Position numbers and translations under genes: made by a program. The notes beneath the pieces were generated by a model. That model worked only from the letters and a program-made list of their open reading frames with translations, was not told the DNA's origin and made no database searches. This document shows, piece by piece, positions 1-9,930 of a stretch of 9,930 nucleotides of DNA. Every line of letters begins with the position of its first letter. Positions within the stretch are counted from its first letter, which is position 1. Location of the stretch: the IMG/VR virus record IMGVR_UViG_2675903504_000002, positions 1 to 9,930 of that record; one strand, 5' to 3'. Origin of the DNA: a virus (taxonomy: Duplodnaviria; Heunggongvirae; Uroviricota; Caudoviricetes).

Positions 1-288
1 TCGGGCGGACCAAATGATACGTCAGTGGGAGAGATCTCACTAAAAACTGGGGATAACGCCTTAAATGGCGAAGAAACGGTCTAAATAGGCTGATTCAAGG
101 CATTTACGGGAGAAAAAATCGGCTCAAACATGAAGAAATGAAATGACTGAGTCAGCCGAGAAGAATTTCCCCGCTTATTCGCACCTTCCCTAGATGACCA
201 CATTACACATCTAAAAGGTAAACTATGCGATTTCCTTAGCAAGAAGTTTGGCGATAGCATTAGCCTGAGTGTTAATGCATTAGCTTCT

Positions 289-753
289 TTGCTTGAACAG
301 GCGTGTCGAGAAAAATCCAAGGTAAAATCCGCAGATATTATTAATTTTCCTGAACTTATTTCACGAAAGGGTTTCTCATCAGAAGCATTGAATGGTGTGC
401 TTGATTCCTTGAATGCAAGTAATAGTTTAAAGCCTGATTGGGACAAAGCTAGTCCCCTATTCAATGATCTTGGCAAAACATCGCTTCAGCTCATTATCCT
501 GCAAGCCATGTTCTCACAAGTTTGCATCGACCTTAACCAAAACAAAAAAAATCCTTCGACTGTATATCTAGAATATGCAATTAGCCTTTACGATGAGGCG
601 AGTGCTCACTCGGATTTGAAATTATATCTAACTGAAACCATGTACAAAATTGATGCACTTTGTCCAGATTATGCATTGACTTTAAAGTCAGGGAAGAAAG
701 AATGCATAGTTATTTACTCAATAATCCAGAAGCTCTTAGAGGGAGGTGAATAA
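289..753 (+). CDS. Hypothetical small protein (154 aa if TTG start at 289; true start uncertain), translationally coupled to the downstream ATPase
   Basis: Frame is open from 151 to the TAA at 751-753 with no in-frame ATG before 508. Stop overlaps the next gene's ATG (TAATG, 751-755). AT-rich like the ATPase. The antisense ORF 81..476 overlaps and is judged spurious. Confidence 0.5.
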   Translation: MLEQACREKSKVKSADIINFPELISRKGFSSEALNGVLDSLNASNSLKPDWDKASPLFNDLGKTSLQLIILQAMFSQVCIDLNQNKKNPSTVYLEYAISLYDEASAHSDLKLYLTETMYKIDALCPDYALTLKSGKKECIVIYSIIQKLLEGGE

Positions 754-2405
754 TGAAAAGCATATACTTTAAAAGTGCTCATATATTATCCCTTCGCGAT
801 AAGAAAGGATTCTCCTTCAAGTTCTCACCTGATATTAATATCATTACAGGTGAGAACGACACAGGTAAGTCTAGCTTTATTAAGAGCTTATATCATACAT
901 TAGGTGCTGATGTTCGACTGGATAAAAAGTGGAAAGAAGATAACTTTGTTTCAAAAGTTGTTATTTGTGTTAATAATCGTGACTATGCGTTTCTTCGCCA
1001 CGAAAAACGTATTTCCATTTTCGATATAACAGCAGGACAAGAGCATCACTTAGTGACCTCTAGCTCTCGTGCAGAGATTGCATTAGCTGTGCGTGATGTC
1101 TTTGATTTCAATTTGGAGCTTGTGACTAAAACTAATTTGGTTCAGGGACAAGCACAACCAGCAAGTCTTTATCTCCCTTACTATATTGATCAAGATAACG
1201 GTTGGGGGAAAGTTTTAGATTCATTTAGCAGTTTGGCTATGTATGAGGACTGGCAAAAAAATATCTTGAATTTTCATACTGGTGTAAAACCAAAGGAGTA
1301 CTATACTTTACAAGGAAAGATTAATTTAATTGATTTCGATCTTGTTGAAATCCGAACGACGTTAAAAGCTCTAAAGAGAGCTAAAAAGCGATTCGAAGAG
1401 TCATTTGGAAGAGTACTTTTCGATGTGGATGTAAAATATTATGAAGAGCTGCTGGAACGTTTCCTTCGTAAGTGCCAAGACTTACATCAAGAAGAAACAG
1501 AATACAGAATTAAGCTCATAAAAATATTATCTCTACGAGATGAATTAGTAACAGAAATAGAGGAATCAAAAAGACAGCTCGATGAAAATGATATAGATTC
1601 TTTGCTACCATCGGCAGGCTTAGAAGCAAGATATGTAGTACTTGAGAATAAAGAAAAGCTATTGCAAATCATACCAAAGTTGTATGAGGAAAAATCTGTA
1701 TATGATGATCAACTCTCTAAAATTAAAGAAGATTTGAAACAGGCTATAAGCTTAAGCTCAGAACTCAAAAACATGCTTCTGGAAGTCAAAGAGCAACTGA
1801 CTCTTCAAGACGTTATTAAGTCTCAAGCAAGTAAGCAGGTTGAGGTAACTTTCGATGAGCAAATTAACGAATTACTGCTAAAAATAGGCGAATTGGATGT
1901 TTCTAGAACTCAGCTTTCAAAAGAAATAGCAAAGTTCGAAGATAAAAAGCGAGCAAAAGAAATCAATGATAAGTTTAAAGAGTCACTGAAGTTTGCGCAA
2001 ACTGAGTTAGGTATCAAAGATCCTAAAGTTGGAACTATTCTTCAATATGGTCCGATTTCTAAGAGCGAAACAGGCAGCCGTGCTCCAAGATCAATCCTGG
2101 CTTATCACTATGCTCTTCTAAAAACAATAGAAGATAAATCGACAAGTCCTATGCTTCCAGTAGTAATTGACTCGCCTAAACAACAAGATCCAGATCCGCG
2201 TACAACAAAAAAGTTATTCGATTTATGTATTAATGGTTTATCAACTAATAGCCAGCTAATTATCGGCTCAGTTTCATTTGAAAGAGAAACGAATCAGTTT
2301 AAAACACTTATTATGACTGAAAAATACAGTCTGCTAAAATCAGAGCTTTACAATCAGGTTTATCAAGAGATTATGCCTCTTTATGAACGAGCTGCGTTAT
2401 CATAA
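753..2405 (+). CDS. SMC/Rad50-like (ABC-type) ATPase with long central coiled coil, 550 aa; candidate defence ATPase of unassigned family
   Basis: SD GGAGG at 742-746, 6 nt before ATG 753. Walker A GENDTGKS at 849-872. Residues ~190-430 are K/E/L/Q-rich and heptad-like. C-terminal signature-like SETGS (2064-2078) and Walker-B-like LPVVIDSP (2154-2177). Confidence 0.8.
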   Translation: MKSIYFKSAHILSLRDKKGFSFKFSPDINIITGENDTGKSSFIKSLYHTLGADVRLDKKWKEDNFVSKVVICVNNRDYAFLRHEKRISIFDITAGQEHHLVTSSSRAEIALAVRDVFDFNLELVTKTNLVQGQAQPASLYLPYYIDQDNGWGKVLDSFSSLAMYEDWQKNILNFHTGVKPKEYYTLQGKINLIDFDLVEIRTTLKALKRAKKRFEESFGRVLFDVDVKYYEELLERFLRKCQDLHQEETEYRIKLIKILSLRDELVTEIEESKRQLDENDIDSLLPSAGLEARYVVLENKEKLLQIIPKLYEEKSVYDDQLSKIKEDLKQAISLSSELKNMLLEVKEQLTLQDVIKSQASKQVEVTFDEQINELLLKIGELDVSRTQLSKEIAKFEDKKRAKEINDKFKESLKFAQTELGIKDPKVGTILQYGPISKSETGSRAPRSILAYHYALLKTIEDKSTSPMLPVVIDSPKQQDPDPRTTKKLFDLCINGLSTNSQLIIGSVSFERETNQFKTLIMTEKYSLLKSELYNQVYQEIMPLYERAALS

Positions 2406-2435
2406 TCTGATCATTTATATGGGAACACGCTCATC

Positions 2436-2459
2436 ACTATGAGTGTGTCTCCTCATAGT
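2436..2459. other. Perfect 8-bp stem hairpin (ACTATGAG / CTCATAGT, 8-nt loop) 31 nt after the ATPase stop
   Basis: Exact inverted repeat read from the sequence. Lacks a following T-run, so not a canonical intrinsic terminator. Confidence 0.4.
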
Positions 2460-2537
2460 TACGCTAGCTATCAATTAAATTAGCCTATTCAATTGACCAG
2501 CTCTTCATTGATCAACAATAAGTGCTATTAGCTACTT

Positions 2538-2597
2538 CAGCTTTCGGCACAGAGCGGACGAGATGGCTGGTTTGAAGGTCCGCTGTGAGCGAAGAGC
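2538..2597. other. Two adjacent stem-loops in the convergent intergenic region
   Basis: CACAG(AG)CGGAC ... GTCCGCTGTG (10 bp with a 2-nt bulge, 18-nt loop), then GCGAAG-AGCGGAA-CTTCGC (6-bp stem). No adjacent U-tract on either strand. Confidence 0.4.
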
Positions 2598-2706
2598 GGA
2601 ACTTCGCGATTAATCTCGCAGTCAAATAGTTGCATTACTCACATTACGGCGTATTAATCAATGGAGAGCAGATCAATAAGAACAGAAATAAACATTCCAA
2701 GCATTA

Positions 2707-3258
2707 CTACAAGTCTGACATTAGAGCCAAACACATAATCCGTTCCCAGTGATTCACAAAAGGCGAATTATTGATTATTGTTTGAAATATAAGGTATTTA
2801 GCAGCATTTTTATCTACGGAGATTGGTAGTACTGAGTTATATAGAGCTAAAAGCACAACTAACCTCGCACCAGCTTCTTTAGAGTATCTTAAAGATAAAT
2901 CAAAATCGTTAAAATGTTTTTCCACTCTTTGTTTATGTGCATTATCCCAATCAGCAGGTGGCGAAACAAAATACTCAATAACTCCAGGCTCATCATTTTT
3001 GCCAACCAAGTATCTAGCCGATATCCACTGTTCATCATAATAACGGCTATCGTCTAAATAGGGATGTATTATCTGTTCTGCTTCATTTCTTGCAAAAGTT
3101 TCCCCTTTACCATCCATATTACAATCTCGACAAGCTGGCACAAGATTAACAGGCAATATAGAAAACTGAGGATAGTGAGCTTTAGGCAAATAATGATCTA
3201 AATTTCGAGGTCGCCCAATCCCACCACAAAATGGGCATTTTTCATTAGCAGCAGTCAT
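2707..3258 (-). CDS. HNH-family endonuclease, 183 aa
   Basis: N-terminal CPFCG...LDHYLPK...N...CRDCN pattern (about 3115..3237 on +), i.e. two CxxC pairs flanking a DH dyad as in McrA/HNH nucleases. AT-rich. No strong SD upstream of ATG 3258. Confidence 0.8.
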   Translation of the reverse strand: MTAANEKCPFCGGIGRPRNLDHYLPKAHYPQFSILPVNLVPACRDCNMDGKGETFARNEAEQIIHPYLDDSRYYDEQWISARYLVGKNDEPGVIEYFVSPPADWDNAHKQRVEKHFNDFDLSLRYSKEAGARLVVLLALYNSVLPISVDKNAAKYLIFQTIINNSPFVNHWERIMCLALMSDL

Positions 3259-3333
3259 CAGGGCATCATAAATATTTCGAGCAGGCTTTTTCTTCCCAAC
3301 AACATAATTTCCATTTATGTAAACTGATTAATG

Positions 3334-3365
3334 AAAACAATAAGTTAGAGTAAAAACAATAAGTT
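3334..3365. repeat. Tandem direct repeat AAAACAATAAGTT x2 (3334-3346, 3353-3365) between int stop and HNH start
   Basis: 13/13 identity, 19 bp period, followed by GGTGGTCAGTGGTGG just before the int stop. Confidence 0.7.
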
Positions 3366-3385
3366 GGGTTGGTGGTCAGTGGTGG

Positions 3386-4441
3386 TTATGACGGGGTAAT
3401 GCCAACCGCTGCCGCCACTTTGTCGCCACTTGGCAGCGTTGCCAGAGGATTGAAACGGAGCGCCGTTTCCAGATGATCCGGTGCCAGATGTGCGTAACGC
3501 ATAGTCATTTTTATATCGTGGTGTCCGAGAATTTTTTGTAAGGCCAGAATGTTTCCACCCGACATCATGAAGTGCGCCGCAAACGTATGGCGCAGAACGT
3601 GTGTGAGTTGACCGCGAGGGAGCACGATAGACGTTTTTTCCATTACGGATAAAAATTGAAAATAGCAGTCTGTGAAGAAATTGAATCCATCAAGCGCCAT
3701 GATCTCTTCATAAAGCTCTTTACTGATAGGGATGCTTCTGTTTTTCTTCCCCTTCGTTCTTACAAAGGTAATTCGGTATTTAGTCACCTGTGATCGGGTA
3801 AGGTTTATTGCTTCTCGCCAGCGTGCGCCTGTGCTTAAGCATATCTTGACTACCAGCGCCAGAATTGGGTCCTGACGTTTGCAATCAGCCAGCAGTTCAA
3901 CAATCTGCTCATGGGTAAGCCATGCCATCTCTTTTTCTGCGATGGTGAATTTTCGCATGTTCTCCAGTGGGTTTGGATACGACCATTCGCCCAGGCGGGA
4001 TAGTTCGCTAAAAACACTACTTAGATAGCTTTGCTCCAGGTTAATGGTGACCGGGCTGGCTCCTTTCTTCCATTTCTCGCTGAAGTAGATCTCACCGGTC
4101 AGGCGTTTATCTCGATAGTGGGCAAACATTTTAGAGGTGAGATTGGTTGCAAGAGGATTGCCTAGAGCGTCAACCATCAGCAGCAATTTGTCATAGACAT
4201 GCTGCCCAGCAGTCAGAGATTTACCATGTAATTTGAACCATAGCTCAACCACGTCTTTCAGGGTTCGACGATCCACTGATTCGCCCAGCCAGGGCTTTGA
4301 TTCGGTTTCTTCCATCGTGTGACGCTCAAAAGCCAGAGCTTCGCCTTTGGTGGCGAATTGTTTACGCACACGACGCCCACTTCGTCCGGCGGGGTAACAT
4401 TCGCAAAGCCATTTCCCTGTGGTGAGTTTTCGTACTGCCAT
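3386..4441 (-). CDS. int: Tyrosine site-specific recombinase (phage integrase, P2/186-type), 351 aa
   Basis: C-terminal catalytic region LSTGARWREA ... HVLRHTFAAHFMMSGGNILALQKILGHHDIKMTMRYAHLAP contains the R...H-x-x-R...Y signature. N-terminus MAVRKL...GRSGRRVRKQF resembles P2 Int as I recall it. Confidence 0.95.
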   Translation of the reverse strand: MAVRKLTTGKWLCECYPAGRSGRRVRKQFATKGEALAFERHTMEETESKPWLGESVDRRTLKDVVELWFKLHGKSLTAGQHVYDKLLLMVDALGNPLATNLTSKMFAHYRDKRLTGEIYFSEKWKKGASPVTINLEQSYLSSVFSELSRLGEWSYPNPLENMRKFTIAEKEMAWLTHEQIVELLADCKRQDPILALVVKICLSTGARWREAINLTRSQVTKYRITFVRTKGKKNRSIPISKELYEEIMALDGFNFFTDCYFQFLSVMEKTSIVLPRGQLTHVLRHTFAAHFMMSGGNILALQKILGHHDIKMTMRYAHLAPDHLETALRFNPLATLPSGDKVAAAVGITPS

Positions 4442-4466
4442 AAAAAAGCCCTCATATCAGAGGGCT
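4442..4466 (-). terminator. Candidate rho-independent terminator downstream of the OLD-like gene; its 3' arm contains the int Shine-Dalgarno
   Basis: Minus-strand RNA reads AGCCCUC-UGAUAU-GAGGGCU then U5-6, directly followed by the int AUG (4441). The 7-bp GC-rich stem's GAGGG lies 7 nt from the AUG. Confidence 0.5.
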
Positions 4467-4511
4467 AAATTTAACTGTATATTTGACCAGTAGTCAATGT
4501 ATGGTTTTTAC

Positions 4512-6500
4512 TTAAAAAACATTCTTATCCCCGTGGAAAAAACGTGCAACGTTCAATAGCCAGTCGGGGGTTTTTATTTCATTTGAATTTGCTAGTATTT
4601 CTAAATATTTTTCGCAAAATTCATTTTTTTTTCCTGGTAATTCGAAATAATCCTCAATAGCTTTTTTTTCTGTAATGTTAAGATTCAAAGCGCCTCCCGA
4701 TACTGAAGACTCCATTAACTGTGGGGTTTCCATAAAGGACAAACTAGTTTCTCCTTTAGTGTAAAGCATTTTCAGAGTTTCTACGTAGAAATCAGCATTA
4801 AGAGACTGCTCAATTTCTGTAGGTGGATAAACTCGATCATCAGTAACTTTAACAAGGCTTATATTAGATAAGTCTTTATCGAGCAAGAGTCTTCTTATTT
4901 TTATACTTGGTATTGTATCTGTAGCATCATATGGACTATATTTGTGATCTGTATCTAATAATAATAATACTTTTCCTGAGATTGTTGCTTTGCGATCCTC
5001 TAACGCCATAACGAGTAAATTATATATTTTTTTTACTGTAGGGGAGCCACCGACGGATAAAACTATTAGTTTCTCAATGTTTTCATAATCCAAGTGAGCG
5101 GAAATATATTTTCTATCAGTTTTTCCTTCGCACAATATCCAGTTATAATTATTTCCAGATGTTATTGAATAAACAATTGATTGTGCTAAGTCGTGATTGC
5201 TTTTCATTTCTAAAACGTCAAGGTAAGAGCCATTTGACTCTTTTGCTAGTTCCTTTAATTCATCCTTGTAGTTTTCCAGATCGAGTGCTTTGATGTATGT
5301 TTGAGAGGGGGAAATATATATGGCTGTACCTGAGCCTGTAACAGGTAAAAAACCATACCAATGAGTTGTACAAATAGTTTGTATGCCTAGGTCGCTAATT
5401 TTTTTTATTTTATCAAATTGATTAAAACATGATGTGGCATGTAAGGATAATTCAGGTTCATCAACAGCAAGAATTGTTGAGTGCTGAGATTTTTGTGGAT
5501 TATGTTTTAAGAAATTGGTAGCAAGATCTAGCAATGCTTTTCTTTTTTCTCCTGAGCTTAAATTTTGCACAGGGGTATCTTTATTAACATCATCAATATG
5601 ATGTAATATTTTATCACTAAAATATGATTCAATTATTTTAGATATCATATGACGTTGAGTGAAACTATTTTGTCGCTGAGATGGTTTTTTAAATTGATAT
5701 CGCCCCTCAAGCTTTGTAGTTAATTGTCTAATAAAATCATTTAAGTGCGAATTTATTGCTGTAATATCCTTTTTCTTAATGATTTTACTGATTTTTTGTT
5801 GGAGATTTTCACCTAATAAAGACTGTAATAAATCGCTTTCAATCCTTGAGTATTCGGATGTGGTTATTTCTGCAGGTAGGTAAATATAATTATAGATATC
5901 CTTAATTGTTATTAATAGCTTAGGTAGTATATTGTTAAAATGATATTTTTTATTATTCGTCGAACTATTTTCATTTGCGAGATCATCAATTTGCAATCGA
6001 TAATCATCTATAGATTCGAAAATTGACATGTAGGGGCGAGGAATATCATTTGCAGTTTCTTTTATTATCCCAAGGGGAATTAATAAATATTCATCTGAAG
6101 AATATTTGTATTCTAGTTGCTTCCTGTGTGATATAAATTTCTCAGCTATAGGACGTTGCAATGTATTAAAAACTTCACTTTCTATTTGCCAAGTGATATC
6201 GCTTACGATTTCTAATGCTTTGTATAGGGAATTATTTATCTTTAGCTTGTTTTTATTTATTAAATAAATTGGCACAATGAATGGTTCTCGAGTATCGAAA
6301 CCTTGACTGCGCGCTTCATTGTTGATATCAAGTCTATTGATATCAGTTTTATTTAGTACAATATCTAATGCTTGTAATATTGAGCTTTTCCCGACACCAT
6401 TTTCACCAATGAGCCAAGAGGATTTATTGTTTAAAGTGAGAGGGATATAATGTTGATTTTTGAAATTCTTGAAATTTCGTAAAATAACACCAATAATCAT
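4512..6500 (-). CDS. OLD-family ATPase-TOPRIM nuclease (class-1 OLD-like single-gene architecture; a fused PARIS AriA-AriB-like protein is an alternative), 662 aa
   Basis: N-terminal ABC/AAA_15-type Walker A LIGENGVGKSS (6384..6407). C-terminal TOPRIM motifs ILCEGKTD (5115..5138) and LLLLDTDH (DxD at 4947..4955). SD AAGGA 5-6 nt upstream of ATG 6500, 20 bp after the cI stop. Very AT-rich (about 28% G+C in a hand-counted 60-nt sample). Confidence 0.85.
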   Translation of the reverse strand: MIIGVILRNFKNFKNQHYIPLTLNNKSSWLIGENGVGKSSILQALDIVLNKTDINRLDINNEARSQGFDTREPFIVPIYLINKNKLKINNSLYKALEIVSDITWQIESEVFNTLQRPIAEKFISHRKQLEYKYSSDEYLLIPLGIIKETANDIPRPYMSIFESIDDYRLQIDDLANENSSTNNKKYHFNNILPKLLITIKDIYNYIYLPAEITTSEYSRIESDLLQSLLGENLQQKISKIIKKKDITAINSHLNDFIRQLTTKLEGRYQFKKPSQRQNSFTQRHMISKIIESYFSDKILHHIDDVNKDTPVQNLSSGEKRKALLDLATNFLKHNPQKSQHSTILAVDEPELSLHATSCFNQFDKIKKISDLGIQTICTTHWYGFLPVTGSGTAIYISPSQTYIKALDLENYKDELKELAKESNGSYLDVLEMKSNHDLAQSIVYSITSGNNYNWILCEGKTDRKYISAHLDYENIEKLIVLSVGGSPTVKKIYNLLVMALEDRKATISGKVLLLLDTDHKYSPYDATDTIPSIKIRRLLLDKDLSNISLVKVTDDRVYPPTEIEQSLNADFYVETLKMLYTKGETSLSFMETPQLMESSVSGGALNLNITEKKAIEDYFELPGKKNEFCEKYLEILANSNEIKTPDWLLNVARFFHGDKNVF

Positions 6501-6520
6501 TTTTTGTCCTTTAAAATTAA

Positions 6521-7111
6521 TTATTTACAGGTCATAATTACTTTAGCGATGATATTAACATCACTGATATTGCACTCTATTTTTTTTGATTTTGACTCTA
6601 GCATTATGCGGTTATTAGGTAACCTCATTAATTCTCGAACAGAATATATACCGTCAATGGCAATCAACCATAACCCATCATCAATCTCATCCACACCTCG
6701 TCTCACGACATAAGTTATATGCTCATGCTCAAGAGCTGAGATATCTTTTAGGTCATTTGGCAATAGTGATAAATCAAAAATTAAATAGCCATTATCAATC
6801 AGTTTGCCATCGATAATTTTCTCTCTGGTCAGGCTTACAACATGCGATTTTGCATCCACATACATGGGGCCTTCAGCTGCGGATAGCCAACGAAGTGAAA
6901 TACCTGTTTCTAACGCACATTGAATTATCCAATCAGCGGGGAATGTATCTCTCATATATCGATTAGCTAACGTGCTTTTAGAAACACCAAGATGTTCAGC
7001 CAAAGCCTGTCGTGTCGTAAAGCCATAAGCTTCGACTAATCGCTCAATCGCAGCCTTACCACCTTTATTGGGATTTATTTTGATCTCACTTGGGTACTTT
7101 GATGTTGACAT
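6521..7111 (-). CDS. cI: Phage 186-type CI immunity repressor (N-terminal HTH, C-terminal oligomerisation domain), 196 aa
   Basis: HTH-like segment GFTTRQALAEHLGVSKSTLANRY. Size and divergent position opposite the apl/cII-like genes match the phage 186 switch layout (P2 C is much smaller). Start codon overlaps the -35 of the rightward promoter. Confidence 0.8.
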   Translation of the reverse strand: MSTSKYPSEIKINPNKGGKAAIERLVEAYGFTTRQALAEHLGVSKSTLANRYMRDTFPADWIIQCALETGISLRWLSAAEGPMYVDAKSHVVSLTREKIIDGKLIDNGYLIFDLSLLPNDLKDISALEHEHITYVVRRGVDEIDDGLWLIAIDGIYSVRELMRLPNNRIMLESKSKKIECNISDVNIIAKVIMTCK

Positions 7112-7158
7112 ATCTCTTTTGCGATCCTAGTATCACTTTTGTTCCCATTTGGGTACTT
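7090..7158. promoter_or_regulatory. Two exact copies of TTGGGTACTT (7090-7099, 7149-7158) bracketing the pR-like promoter; candidate operator or regulator binding sites
   Basis: 10/10 direct repeat read from the sequence, 59 bp apart, flanking the -35/-10. Confidence 0.4.
7105..7133 (+). promoter_or_regulatory. Candidate sigma70 rightward lytic promoter (pR-like): -35 TTGACA, 17-bp spacer, -10 TAGTAT
   Basis: TTGACA at 7105-7110 and TAGTAT at 7128-7133. The -35 overlaps the cI start codon (complement of CAT at 7109-7111). Oriented toward apl/cII. Confidence 0.5.
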
Positions 7159-7206
7159 GTCACGATTACTACAGGCTCACCACAAGCCAATAGGAGATGT
7201 TGCATC

Positions 7207-7428
7207 ATGACCCCTAACATTTCAATAACTCTGAATACGCCACATGTCACAATTGAGCGTTATAGCGAACTTACTGGTCTTTCAATCGACACAATTAACG
7301 ATATGCTGGCTGACGGTCGCATCCCTCGGCATCGCCTTCGGAAAGACAAGAAAAGAGAAAAGGTGATGATCAACCTTGCTGCTCTTACCGTTGATGCACT
7401 TACTGATTGCAATGTTGTATTCAACTAG
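7207..7428 (+). CDS. apl: Apl/Cox-type HTH excisionase / transcriptional regulator, 73 aa
   Basis: SD AGGAG at 7192-7196, 10 nt before ATG 7207. The track's 7090 start runs through the promoter and across the cI start, so it is implausible. HTH-like [24 protein letters not shown]. First gene of the rightward operon, divergent from cI. Confidence 0.6.
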
Positions 7429-7460
7429 TTCCATTTTGGGATACATCAGGGGTGTCGACC

Positions 7461-7970
7461 ATGTTTGATTACCAAGTTTCCAAACATCCACATTTTGATG
7501 AAGCCTGTCGTGCATTCGCACTGCGCCACAACCTGGTGCAACTGGCAGAACGTGCAGGCATGAATGTGCAGATTCTGCGGAACAAGCTGAACCCAGCTCA
7601 ACCTCATTTATTAACCGCACCAGATATCTGGCTACTTACCGATCTGACTGAAGATTCAACGCTGGTAGACGGTTTTCTGGCACAGATTCATTGTCTGCCA
7701 TGTGTACCGATTAATGAGGTGGCAAAAGAGAAACTGCCACATTACGTCATGAGTGCAACCGCAGAGATCGGGCGTGTTGCTGCAGGTGCGGTATCTGGCG
7801 ATGTAAAAACCAGTGCAGGTCGTCGTAATGCTATCAGCAGCATTAACTCTGTAACACGACTGATGGCGTTGGCTGCTGTTTCATTGCAGGCCCGTTTACA
7901 GGCTAACCCTGCGATGGCGAGTGCAGTTGATACCGTGGCTGGCCTCGGTGCTTCATTCGGTTTGCTGTGA
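7461..7970 (+). CDS. cII: Phage 186-type CII lysogeny-establishment activator, 169 aa
   Basis: Starts at internal ATG 7461 ([19 protein letters not shown]...); the upstream extension from 7407 overlaps apl. HTH-like [18 protein letters not shown]. Length and position after apl match 186 CII. Confidence 0.8.
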
Positions 7971-7977
7971 GGTACTT

Positions 7978-8274
7978 ATGCTGACGAAAGAACCATCATT
8001 TGCATCGCTGCTGGTAAAGCAAAGCCCGGCAATGCACTACGGTCACGGCTGGATCATGGGTGAGGATGGAAAACGCTGGCATCCATGTCATTCACAAGAT
8101 GAATTGCTGTCTGAATTGACCACGAGGAAACGGAGAAAGTCAAAATGTATGCAGCGGAAAGTGAAGTGGTTTATCAGTTTCGTTACAGAGGGGAGAGTTA
8201 TTCAGTACCTGAAGATGATTTGCTCTGTTGTTATCCGTCGTTGTCGGGCGATGGCAGTTACTTTTTCACGCTAA
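7978..8274 (+). CDS. Hypothetical early protein (98 aa as drawn; 3' portion doubtful)
   Basis: ATG 7978 is 5 nt after a GAGG overlapping the cII stop. The last ~40 codons overlap the next ORF and read like out-of-frame sequence (C/R/W-rich). Confidence 0.45.
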   Translation: MLTKEPSFASLLVKQSPAMHYGHGWIMGEDGKRWHPCHSQDELLSELTTRKRRKSKCMQRKVKWFISFVTEGRVIQYLKMICSVVIRRCRAMAVTFSR

Positions 8275-8369
8275 AAGATGGGACGTTTTTACGGGGAGAG
8301 CAGGTTAAAGAGACGATACGAAAAAATGTATCTCCTCTTGAACGTTACCGTAATAACAAACAACGATAG
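8145..8369 (+). CDS. Hypothetical early protein, 74 aa
   Basis: SD GGAG at 8132-8135, 9 nt before ATG 8145. Ordinary amino-acid composition. Overlaps the 3' end of the previous ORF in a different frame. Confidence 0.5.
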   Translation: MYAAESEVVYQFRYRGESYSVPEDDLLCCYPSLSGDGSYFFTLKDGTFLRGEQVKETIRKNVSPLERYRNNKQR

Positions 8370-8391
8370 TTGCGTTTTGGGGATATGAATT

Positions 8392-8733
8392 ATGGCAATT
8401 AATGGCGCTGCGGCGACTGTTCCATTAAGCCCCGGTGAACGCCTGAATGGACTTAATCACATTGCGGAGCTAAGGGCGAAAGTTTTTGGCCTGAATATTG
8501 AGTCAGAGCTTGAGCGGTTTATTAAAGATATGCGTGATCCACGGGATATCAATAACGAACAAAATAAACGGGCACTGGCTGCTATATTCTTTATGGCAAA
8601 AATTCCAGCTGAACGTCATAGCATCAGCATTAATGAGCTGACCACTGACGAAAAGCGGGAGTTGATTAAAGCAATGAATCATTTTCGTGCAGTGGTGAGC
8701 TTATTTCCCAGACGGCTAACCATGCCGAATTAA
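8392..8733 (+). CDS. Hypothetical phage early protein, 113 aa
   Basis: ORF with G-rich SD-like GGGGA at 8379-8383. Co-directional with the early operon; no motif recognised. Confidence 0.6.
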   Translation: MAINGAAATVPLSPGERLNGLNHIAELRAKVFGLNIESELERFIKDMRDPRDINNEQNKRALAAIFFMAKIPAERHSISINELTTDEKRELIKAMNHFRAVVSLFPRRLTMPN

Positions 8734-8800
8734 CCAACTAATGAAATTAATGGCGTAAACCCGCCGGGTATCCCTTTATCTAAATTCAGGAGAATTGATT

Positions 8801-9034
8801 ATGCGTAATATTGAAACCCTCACGACTAAAACCGGACCGGATGATGCAGGGCTTAATATTTTACTGACAGAGGCTCGTCTGGAAGAACGCCGGGCAAGGG
8901 CTGAAGCAATGGCAGCTCGCCTTGATAGCCTGGCGTGTCATATCACATCCCGCCAGCTAAACCATGTCGAAGCAGCAGAACTGCTGCGTGTGACCGCTGA
9001 AGCAATCCAGAACGAAGCGCAGGAGATCCACTGA
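8801..9034 (+). CDS. Hypothetical phage protein, 77 aa
   Basis: SD AGGAG at 8788-8792, 8 nt before ATG 8801 (preferred over the TTG at 8795). Stop overlaps the start of the next gene (TGATG at 9032-9036). Confidence 0.6.
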   Translation: MRNIETLTTKTGPDDAGLNILLTEARLEERRARAEAMAARLDSLACHITSRQLNHVEAAELLRVTAEAIQNEAQEIH

Positions 9035-9261
9035 TGGCTGATGCAATGGATCTCGTACAGCAGCGAGTTGAAGAAGAACGCCAGCGTCATATCCGTGCTG
9101 CCCGTGCCAAAACGCCGGGCGTGTCCCGCGTGCTTTGCGTTGAGTGTGAAGCGCCAATTCCGCCAGCACGCCGCCGTGCCATTCCGGGTGTGCAACTTTG
9201 CATTACCTGTCAGGAAATCGCAGAGCTGAAAGGCAAACATTACAACGGAGGTGCTGTATGA
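9034..9261 (+). CDS. TraR/DksA-family C4 zinc-finger protein (likely RNA polymerase secondary-channel regulator), 75 aa
   Basis: CVECEAPIPPARRRAIPGVQLCITCQ gives two CxxC pairs with TraR-like spacing and conserved PGV. SD AGGAG at 9021-9025. Stop overlaps the dam start. Confidence 0.85.
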   Translation: MADAMDLVQQRVEEERQRHIRAARAKTPGVSRVLCVECEAPIPPARRRAIPGVQLCITCQEIAELKGKHYNGGAV

Positions 9262-9930
9262 GCACCATCCTGAAATGGGCGGGAAATAAAACCGCCATTA
9301 TGTCCGAACTGAAAAAACATCTTCCTGCTGGTCCGCGACTGGTTGAACCTTTCGCGGGTTCCTGTGCAGTGATGATGGAGACGGATTACCCCAGCTATCT
9401 TGTTGCGGATATTAATCCTGATTTAATCAACCTCTATAAAAAGGTTGCTGCTGATTGTGAGGCGTTTATATCTCGTGCCAGAGCTTTATTTGAGGAAGCA
9501 AACAGAGAGGTGGCTTATTACAACATAAGGCAGGAGTTTAATTACTCCACTGAAATTACTGATTTCATGAAAGCGGTATATTTTCTGTATCTCAATCGTC
9601 ATGGTTACCGTGGGTTATGTCGTTATAACAAGAGCGAGCATTTCAACATTCCATACGGTAATTATAAAAATCCGTATTTCCCTGAAAAAGAAATTCGCGC
9701 ATTTGCAGAGAAAGCCCAGCGAGCAACGTTTATCTGCGCCAGCTTTGATGAAACGCTGGCGATGCTGCAGGTGGGGGATGTGGTGTATTGCGATCCGCCT
9801 TATGACGGTACGTTTTCCGGCTATCACACTGATGGTTTCACTGAAGATGACCAGTATCACCTGGCATCTGTTCTTGAATATCGATCATCAGAAGGTCATC
9901 CAGTCATTGTTTCTAAGGAAGGTGCGAATA
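9258..9930 (+). CDS. dam: DNA adenine (GATC-type, Dam-family) N6-methyltransferase, 3' end truncated by the window edge
   Basis: SD GGAGG at 9247-9251. N-terminal LKWAGNK and catalytic DPPY (9792..9803). Close resemblance to E. coli Dam along the whole visible length ([31 protein letters not shown]). No stop before 9930. Confidence 0.9.

Follow-up and report, generated by a model that had tools for sequence, protein, structure and literature searches.

What kind of gene separates the repressor gene cI from the integrase gene int in a P2-related prophage, and what does it do there? The question is raised by a stretch of 9,930 nucleotides, positions 1 to 9,930 of the IMG/VR record IMGVR_UViG_2675903504_000002 (a virus of the class Caudoviricetes), which was analyzed whole and is called the window throughout. 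On its minus strand, at 4512-6500, the list of open reading frames (ORFs) contains one with an ATG start that encodes a protein of 662 amino acid residues, present in RefSeq as WP_032286372.1, "AAA family ATPase". A preliminary description had read it as an OLD-family ATPase-Toprim gene, acquired horizontally and inserted into the lysogenic operon. Our analysis identifies the product as an OLD-family protein, an ABC ATPase with a C-terminal Toprim domain, and the gene as exchangeable cargo (a moron) in the cI-int slot of a 186-like prophage; by analogy with related systems, it is probably an anti-phage gene.

An ABC ATPase with a C-terminal Toprim domain

We assign the 662-residue protein to the OLD family because profile comparison, the fold of the full-length protein, the match of its C-terminal domain and the conservation of its catalytic positions all agree, and this assignment is far firmer than the steps of expression and defence discussed further below. 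When a family profile built from 35 sequences was compared with P2 Old using hhalign, the two aligned with 98% probability (E = 2.6e-13; residues 244-492 against 212-440), and the motif CEGKTD was paired with VEGKTE of P2 Old, which holds the metal ligands E398 and E402 (PMC7049728). The AlphaFold2 model of the full-length protein (pLDDT 83.7) retrieved as its top Foldseek matches in the PDB the nuclease GajA (2e-15), the retron Eco8 OLD effector (1.6e-14) and the OLD protein of T. scotoductus (TsOLD, 4.5e-11), each aligned over approximately 700 columns; alignments with the heads of SMC and Rad50 were confined to the ATPase. The best fold matches of the C-terminal domain alone are OLD-type Toprim nucleases. 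The family named in the preliminary description is thus borne out by both profile and structure.

The ABC ATPase head occupies residues 1-395 (5316-6500, minus strand, as are all other features of this gene), and in the AlphaFold2 model a helical insert, a candidate for the dimerization domain of OLD nucleases, is seen at approximately residues 90-300. The AAA_15 match itself extends over residues 1-380 (E = 1e-20); the PADLOC model named AriA matches the same span (E = 2e-23), the PADLOC Old model matches with E = 1.5e-17, and AbiLi models also match the ATPase of this protein. All expected motifs can be located: Walker A, GENGVGKSS (residues 32-40, 6381-6407), the ABC signature LSSGEKR (5541-5561), Walker B, ILAVDEPE (residues 343-350, 5451-5474), the D-loop SLH (5439-5447) and the H-loop (5358-5369). 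In an alignment with 35 homologues that are 33-87% identical to the 662-residue protein, K38, Q226, S316, D347, E348, H354 and H380 of the ATPase are unchanged throughout. The spacing of the Walker B aspartate, the D-loop histidine and the H-loop histidine (+7, +33) is that of D299, H306 and H332 in P2 Old (PMC7049728).

The Toprim nuclease domain and a C-terminal helical region make up residues 396-662 (4515-5315). Sequence searches against solved structures, initiated with the whole protein, the family profile and the C-terminal profile, returned ATPase heads only (PtuA, AriA, SMC and, weakly, TsOLD) and nothing for the Toprim part, and this part was therefore tested by fold, with the outcome given above. 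Its nearest sequence models are retron RT-Toprim_I-C, which is of the Eco2 type (E = 1e-4), and AbiLii, which is matched by 15/15 family members, whereas the Pfam model OLD-like_TOPRIM gives E = 0.05 with the full protein and 0.011 with the isolated domain; 26 of the 35 homologues match the latter model, the best of them with E = 9e-6. The motifs that define the domain are an EGxxD motif, C-E458-G-K-T-D462 (5115-5132), a DxD motif, D516-T-D518 (4944-4958), the segment PPTEIE with T561, E562 and E564 (4809-4826), and a fully conserved lysine, K625 (within 4617-4637). E458, G459, D516, D518, E564 and K625 are unchanged in 35/35 homologues, position 462 is either D or E and position 561 either T or S, a degree of conservation far above that of a chance motif match. 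The alignment suggests T/S561, E562 and E564 as candidate metal B ligands. The conserved residues correspond to residues of P2 Old and TsOLD whose mutation abolishes function (PMC7049728). The fusion of a Walker A ATPase with a Toprim domain, originally described from its EGxxD and DxD motifs, therefore holds across the whole set of homologues.

According to the context-based scheme of OLD classes (PMC10568477), the protein belongs to Class 1, because there is no adjacent helicase or reverse transcriptase gene, no match to an Rfam non-coding RNA and no match to DUF4435. A helicase or reverse transcriptase neighbor was absent both from the window and from the E. coli, Citrobacter, Klebsiella, Serratia, Aeromonas, Vibrio and Pseudomonas loci examined, and the window contains no Rfam match at gathering score and no tRNA match. 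Three other classes were rejected on these grounds: Gabija (Class 2) for want of a GajB/UvrD-like helicase gene in the window or related loci, retrons (Class 3) since neither a reverse transcriptase ORF nor an Rfam non-coding RNA match at gathering score was found, and PARIS (Class 4) since two Pfam scans, run at E<=1 and E<=10, did not list DUF4435, the AriB family, among their matches. The last result also bears on the comparison with PARIS proposed in the preliminary description: on this evidence, the protein is not PARIS.

By sequence, the protein sits in a compact OLD clade of its own. A phmmer search against 1.84 billion cluster representatives identified only 438 proteins at E<=0.001, of which 225 remained at E<=1e-30, and most of the listed matches are colinear with the query and approximately 640-660 residues long; a single-sequence search did not connect this clade of ~650-residue proteins to mainstream OLD or GajA proteins. 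No NCBIfam family matched at its cut-off, and matches in PHROGs were weak and limited to families of unknown function. A fold search of BFVD was uninformative, as it returned only giant-virus proteins named "ATP-dependent endonuclease" and AAA proteins.

Exchangeable cargo between cI and int

On one side of the OLD gene lies the gene for a 186-type CI repressor of 196 residues (6521-7111, minus strand; Pfam Phage_CI_repr and Phage_CI_C) and on the other side int (3386-4441, minus strand), which encodes a tyrosine integrase of 351 residues (Pfam Int_N and Phage_integrase) that is 99% identical to Int of phage vB_EcoM-813R9. The cI and int genes of phage 186 share 1 nucleotide and together form the lysogenic operon transcribed from pL and from the CII-dependent pE (186 annotation). 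Sequence comparison with 186 places inverted CII half-sites, ATGTTTG and CAAACAT, at 7461-7487 (minus strand), 20 bp from centre to centre as at 186 pE. With the half-sites of pE conserved upstream and the two genes overlapping in 186, the arrangement in the window is an insertion into the cI-int operon, as had been proposed.

The contents of this slot are highly variable. We surveyed 5426 complete E. coli genomes, 1135 of which carry an int of the type found in the window. The slot holds a 63-residue ORF block in 592/5426 genomes and a PD-Lambda-1/SNIPE block in 163/5426, and the OLD gene occupies it in eight (8/5426), so that it is present in only 8/1135 genomes with this int; the preliminary description had reckoned with the possibility that the gene is backbone in all related prophages, which these counts contradict. 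The eight genomes are 99.6-100% identical to the 2.2-kb query (4400-6600) at the nucleotide level, and the coding sequence is annotated as "AAA family ATPase" in 8/8. They come from cattle, humans, farm environment and river water, and the three that were examined closely originate from New Zealand, Nigeria and Japan.

An Int that is 99% identical, together with the same N-terminal domain of cI, is found in phage vB_EcoM-813R9 and Klebsiella phage KP12, and in both the slot is filled by a 558-residue DUF4041 protein encoded 20 nucleotides after cI. This protein matches the PADLOC model PD-Lambda-1 (E = 3e-120). Vassallo et al. described the DUF4041 protein as an anti-phage system (PMC9519451), and some RefSeq records name it "SNIPE associated domain-containing protein". 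Other E. coli prophages at rcdA have, in the same slot, a KAP P-loop NTPase gene together with a second CI-like gene, or the 63-residue ORF alone. Because the same flanks hold unrelated cargo, including a reported defence gene, and because its composition is deviant, the OLD gene is exchangeable cargo in the cI-int slot, which again can be said far more firmly than anything on its expression or its part in defence. The view of the locus as a moron in a defence hotspot agrees well with this range of cargo in prophages that share a 99%-identical integrase.

Homologues in the same cI-gene-int order are found in prophages of Citrobacter (87% identity), Klebsiella (72%) and Serratia (58%). Elsewhere the context changes: a P2-like prophage of Aeromonas carries a 62% homologue flanked by the portal gene and gpA, at the site of the classical old/tin hotspot (gpQ-gpA), a 37% homologue in a V. 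cholerae lambdoid prophage lies between the lysis genes and Dam, and a 39% homologue stands alone on a Pseudomonas chromosome.

The limits of the cargo are sharp, and only partly those first assumed. The slot does lie between cI and int, but the exchanged block, at 4507-6902 with conserved backbone on both sides, also takes the cI C-terminal domain. The left breakpoint falls at 4503-4507, where the OLD gene has its stop codon, in all seven comparison loci with a break there, while the Citrobacter locus aligns throughout; the right breakpoint falls at 6884-6903, inside cI at approximately codon 70, in six loci, while in Klebsiella and Citrobacter the alignment continues uninterrupted across cI. 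The N-terminal helix-turn-helix part of cI (~6903-7111, minus strand) thus belongs to the conserved backbone and the C-terminal oligomerization domain (6521-6902, minus strand) to the exchanged block. Compared with CI of 813R9, the N-terminal domain is 85% and the C-terminal domain 32% identical, against 99% for Int, and the C-terminal domain is 81% identical to its counterpart in Citrobacter, where the cargo is the 87% OLD homologue. The link between this domain and the cargo is looser in Serratia, where the C-terminal domain is 33% identical and the OLD protein 58%. The joint exchange may have a functional meaning, or it may simply reflect recombination at a breakpoint within the linker of cI.

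Nucleotide composition leads to a similar picture. The OLD gene has a GC content of 31.3% (24% at third codon positions), against 48.6% in int and 38.1% in cI. It had been described as far more AT-rich than both of its neighbors, which is true with respect to int and the N-terminal part of cI but not with respect to the C-terminal half of cI, where the GC content is 34.5%; the AT-rich tract therefore crosses the boundary of the OLD gene. In every cargo-bearing relative the cI C-terminal domain has a GC content of 31-37%, compared with 43% in 186.

Several related prophages carry further cargo. In E. coli LR-48 (locus L021, 4643-7109) the cI-int slot contains genes for a KAP-family P-loop NTPase (505 residues) and for a 307-residue protein annotated as CI repressor, which looks like a candidate defence pair. 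A second slot for cargo is the short stretch from int to attL, occupied by a DUF2971 protein gene in STEC306 (locus L023, 3389-4141) and by genes for a Panacea-domain and a hypothetical protein in AH04 (locus L024, 3044-4272), in agreement with the int-att hotspot described previously (PMC13586616).

Candidate signals for expression

The spacer between cI and the OLD gene (6501-6520, minus strand) is exactly 20 nucleotides long and contains a Shine-Dalgarno sequence, AAGGA, at 6507-6511, 6 nucleotides before the ATG, as the preliminary description had it. A consensus scan of this spacer found no terminator-like site and no promoter-like site on the minus strand.

At the other end of the cargo, a terminator-like hairpin, AGCCCTC-TGATAT-GAGGGCT, followed by a run of T abuts the ATG of int (4442-4466, minus strand). 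The hairpin (4447-4466) has a stem of 7 bp with five G-C pairs, followed by six T, and the predicted fold of 45 nucleotides has a free energy of -14.8 kcal/mol (z = -3.2 versus shuffled sequences). Its 3' arm holds the only sequence of int that resembles a Shine-Dalgarno site, GAGG. Approximately 65 nucleotides upstream of int are kept regardless of the cargo, and pairing of the stem is maintained by wobble-compatible changes. A terminator before int had been noted earlier; the hairpin and T-run are present, but comparison of the loci indicates that they are part of the conserved backbone, outside the cargo.

The same leader contains a promoter-like element, TTGACT-N18-TAAATT (4468-4497, minus strand), a possible int promoter by consensus match, whose columns are fixed across 7 loci. 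The predicted start of transcription from this element would fall in the 5' arm of the hairpin (int leader, 4442-4506, minus strand), and an inverted repeat, TTGAC-N5-GTCAA, overlaps its -35 region. Transcripts initiated here would lack the full hairpin and could leave int translatable, whereas read-through from cI could terminate at the hairpin with the Shine-Dalgarno site masked. No CII half-sites were seen in the int leader, the conserved sequence of which is unlike the pE sites.

Proposed role and alternatives

We propose that the OLD gene encodes a stand-alone ATP-gated Toprim nuclease, carried as prophage cargo, expressed in the lysogen and acting in defence by abortive infection; for this reading as a whole, including inferred expression and defence, we estimate a probability of approximately 0.72. 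In the lysogen, leftward transcripts from pL (maintenance) or pE (establishment) would carry cI together with the OLD gene, and the OLD protein would be translated from its own AAGGA site. The hairpin and T-run would stop most of the read-through and occlude the Shine-Dalgarno site of int, so that repressor and nuclease would be made with little integrase. The protein would remain inactive until infection by a phage provides a trigger, at which point binding or hydrolysis of ATP in the ATPase heads would license the Toprim site to cut nucleic acid, either by nicking DNA, as Vc OLD and Ts OLD do, or by cutting tRNA or other RNA, as do P2 Old, AriB and retron Eco2. The infection would be halted, probably by abortive infection, and the lysogen population and its prophage would be protected. 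There is precedent in P2 Old, Vc OLD, Gabija, PARIS and Eco2, each of which acts against phages (PMC10568477, PMC12392090, PMC12445682, PMC12405507).

A number of observations weigh against this proposal. Co-transcription with cI and termination at the hairpin are inferred from consensus scans. The Toprim domain of the 662-residue protein falls under the Pfam threshold (14.6-16.7 bits versus 23.2), and a sequence search with a profile of the last 265 residues matched no solved structure. There is no basic residue at +7 from E564, where P2 Old has K550 and Ts OLD has R487; it is a guess that K625 of the C-terminal helical region serves as the catalytic lysine, put forward because of the analogy with K562 of Class 2 and Eco2 enzymes (PMC12405507), and the conserved R537 is another candidate for the catalytic basic residue. 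A tblastn search of 50,697 phage records (INPHARED) found no homologue at E<=1e-10, and the literature contains neither a mention of WP_032286372 nor an experiment on any member of the clade. Finally, archaeal Cran1, a member of the OLD family, was reported to be apparently non-defensive (PMC12796447).

The alternative that fares best is a role in the life cycle of the prophage itself, such as addiction or stabilization of the lysogen, regulation of induction, or processing of DNA during excision or replication, with no exclusion of other phages. Its appeal comes from the position of the gene within the lysogeny operon, with the repressor gene on one side and the integrase gene on the other, and from the C-terminal domain of cI that moves with it; moreover, P2 Old kills recBC hosts, meaning that OLD enzymes can act on the host, and Cran1 makes roles outside defence possible for the family (PMC12796447). 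Yet the gene is dispensable, being absent from 186 and from >99% of related E. coli prophages, its slot also houses unrelated cargo that includes a reported defence gene, and its homologues occur outside the cI-int context, in the Aeromonas gpA-gpQ region, the Vibrio lambdoid lysis region and the Pseudomonas chromosome. We therefore consider a life-cycle role unlikely.

A single-chain PARIS, in which fused AriA and AriB would respond to Ocr or other anti-restriction proteins of phages by releasing a Toprim nuclease that acts on tRNA-Lys, is more doubtful still. The match to AriA is limited to the generic AAA_15 ATPase (residues 1-380), and no family member matches DUF4435 among the listed Pfam families even at E<=10. 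The fused AriAB model matches 1/15 C-terminal fragments (E = 0.011), and P2 Old, BpOLD and Eco2 match the 662-residue protein equally well or better. In addition, PARIS releases its nuclease from the ATPase scaffold, a route that a covalent fusion would not permit in the same form.

That the gene is a decaying or inert passenger, an ATPase with a dead nuclease domain kept by its linkage to cI, would accord with the weak sequence signal of the Toprim domain and with the rarity of the gene in E. coli (8/5426 genomes), but is very improbable given that homologues of 33-87% identity show either no change or conservative substitutions at every catalytic position, and given ~225 cluster representatives at E<=1e-30 that are full-length and colinear, an intact ORF in eight E. 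coli genomes and in Citrobacter, Klebsiella and Serratia, and a confident fold prediction.

The proposed ATP-gated defence nuclease can be extended in a more speculative direction, which we offer tentatively and regard as rather unlikely in its entirety. The ~650-residue proteins would form a separate OLD clade of ~225 clusters at 50% identity that combines a Class 1 context with a nuclease region resembling Class 2 and Eco2, and thus might be RNA- or tRNA-cutting effectors with a trigger of their own; the exchanged block might be a cassette that co-inherits defence cargo and the assembly specificity of the repressor; and the hairpin, by masking the ribosome-binding site of int, might uncouple expression of the cargo from that of the integrase.

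The surrounding prophage and its left junction

From 3311 to 9930, the window covers the left end of a P2-related, 186-like prophage. Positions 3311-7600 are 99.98% identical to a prophage of E. coli CE0021a that is integrated beside rcdA, and the query region 4400-6600, including the OLD gene, is 100% identical to it. To the right of cI, a pR-like promoter, TTGACA-N17-TAGTAT (7105-7133, plus strand), overlaps the cI start region and is followed on the plus strand by an Apl/Cox-like gene (7207-7428) and cII (7461-7970); fil, DUF5347, DUF2732 and TraR/DksA-like genes are found to the right of cII. The CE0021a prophage runs on into gpA, portal and terminase genes. Outside the window, it contains unannotated cargo in the gpA-portal hotspot, encoding hypothetical proteins of 141 and 519 residues (locus L001, 20872-23310), which may be a second defence candidate.

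The left flank of the window (1-3314) differs from the usual rcdA side of the prophage and is a piece of an integrative and conjugative element or defence island from the tRNA-Thr side. It comprises an IS5 end (1-188), an LmuA fragment truncated by IS5 (289-753), LmuB of the Lamassu system (753-2405; PADLOC, E = 0) and the 3' two-thirds of a PDC-M01B HNH gene (2707 to ~3314), which is cut exactly at the start of the prophage sequence. The sole sequence shared at the junction of island and prophage (~3309-3314) is the microhomology CCAT, and the junction is spanned by 0/5426 complete E. coli genomes and by no GTDB representative genome. The junction at ~3311 could mean that the prophage integrated at a secondary site within a defence gene, that the DNA was rearranged, or that the contig is chimeric.

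Significance

The concept itself has been published: P2 old is the archetypal prophage OLD nuclease, and the cI-int hotspot is known. What is new is modest, namely a well-delimited, uncharacterized OLD clade, its cI-int placement in 186-like prophages of E. coli and the exchange of the repressor C-terminal domain together with the cargo. The locus leaves current concepts unchanged, as it is a new example of a known arrangement and brings no new principle.

To our knowledge, anti-phage activity among Class 1 OLD nucleases has been documented only for P2 Old and Vc OLD. P2 Old cuts tRNA and Vc OLD nicks DNA, and a third, divergent clade would suit questions about the triggers and the substrates of stand-alone OLD enzymes. 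This clade is convenient for the purpose in that it is found in the context of a repressor operon and has close relatives with other cargo in the same slot. For E. coli 186-like prophages, the locus adds a second cargo slot with sharp limits, the cI linker and the int leader, which should be useful for mining defence genes, for example the pair of a KAP NTPase and a CI-like protein.

Comparison with known systems

Among the closest known systems is P2 Old (Class 1, UniProt P13520), also a single prophage gene that encodes an ABC ATPase with a Toprim domain; P2 Old is expressed in the lysogen, as the 662-residue protein would be. The spacing of the Walker B aspartate, D-loop histidine and H-loop histidine is the same, the metal sites EGxxD/E and DxD align (PMC7049728), and the Aeromonas homologue occupies the old/tin hotspot. 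The two proteins differ in that identity is only ~23% over local stretches, P2 Old has 586 residues and the protein studied here 662, and P2 old is found in gpA-gpQ and not in the cI-int slot. The position of K550 has no lysine or arginine here, and the conserved K625 may replace it. P2 Old is triggered by RecBCD inhibition and has tRNA-Thr as its substrate (PMC12445682), features that the 662-residue protein may or may not share.

Vc OLD of V. cholerae, a Class 1 DNA nickase, is likewise a stand-alone OLD protein on a mobile element, and the Walker A, Walker B and DxD motifs that its defence requires are all present in our protein (PMC12392090). The comparison was made by published motifs alone, with K48, D313, D468 and D470 of Vc OLD against K38, D347, D516 and D518; unlike the gene described here, it resides on a phage defence element with DarTG and not in a lysogeny operon. 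Class 2 OLD proteins and GajA (BpOLD, 6NK8; GajA, 8X5I) are the best structural matches, both over the full length and for the C-terminal domain, and share a helical region with a conserved lysine after the Toprim domain, but no locus examined has the GajB/UvrD-like helicase neighbor of Gabija. The RT-Toprim protein of retron Eco2 and AbiLii provide the closest sequence models for the C-terminal domain, and the Toprim domain of Eco2 acts as an RNase through a site of the same kind, with E, DxD, SxE and K (PMC12405507); the window, however, has no reverse transcriptase and no Rfam non-coding RNA match at gathering score. AbiL differs in consisting of two genes, where a single polypeptide is found here.

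With respect to gene order, the locus resembles lambda rexAB, exclusion genes placed in the immunity operon of cI so that the lysogen expresses them; the OLD gene would be expressed in a similar way. A cI-int hotspot has been described in P2-related K139-like Vibrio phages (PMC9122126), and 8% of the P2 defence systems were mapped to the interval from integrase to primase (PMC13586616). The locus stands apart from rexAB and from the K139-like and P2 integrase-primase hotspots in two respects: its unit of exchange includes the C-terminal domain of the repressor, and a backbone hairpin over the ribosome-binding site of int would insulate the integrase from whatever cargo the slot contains.

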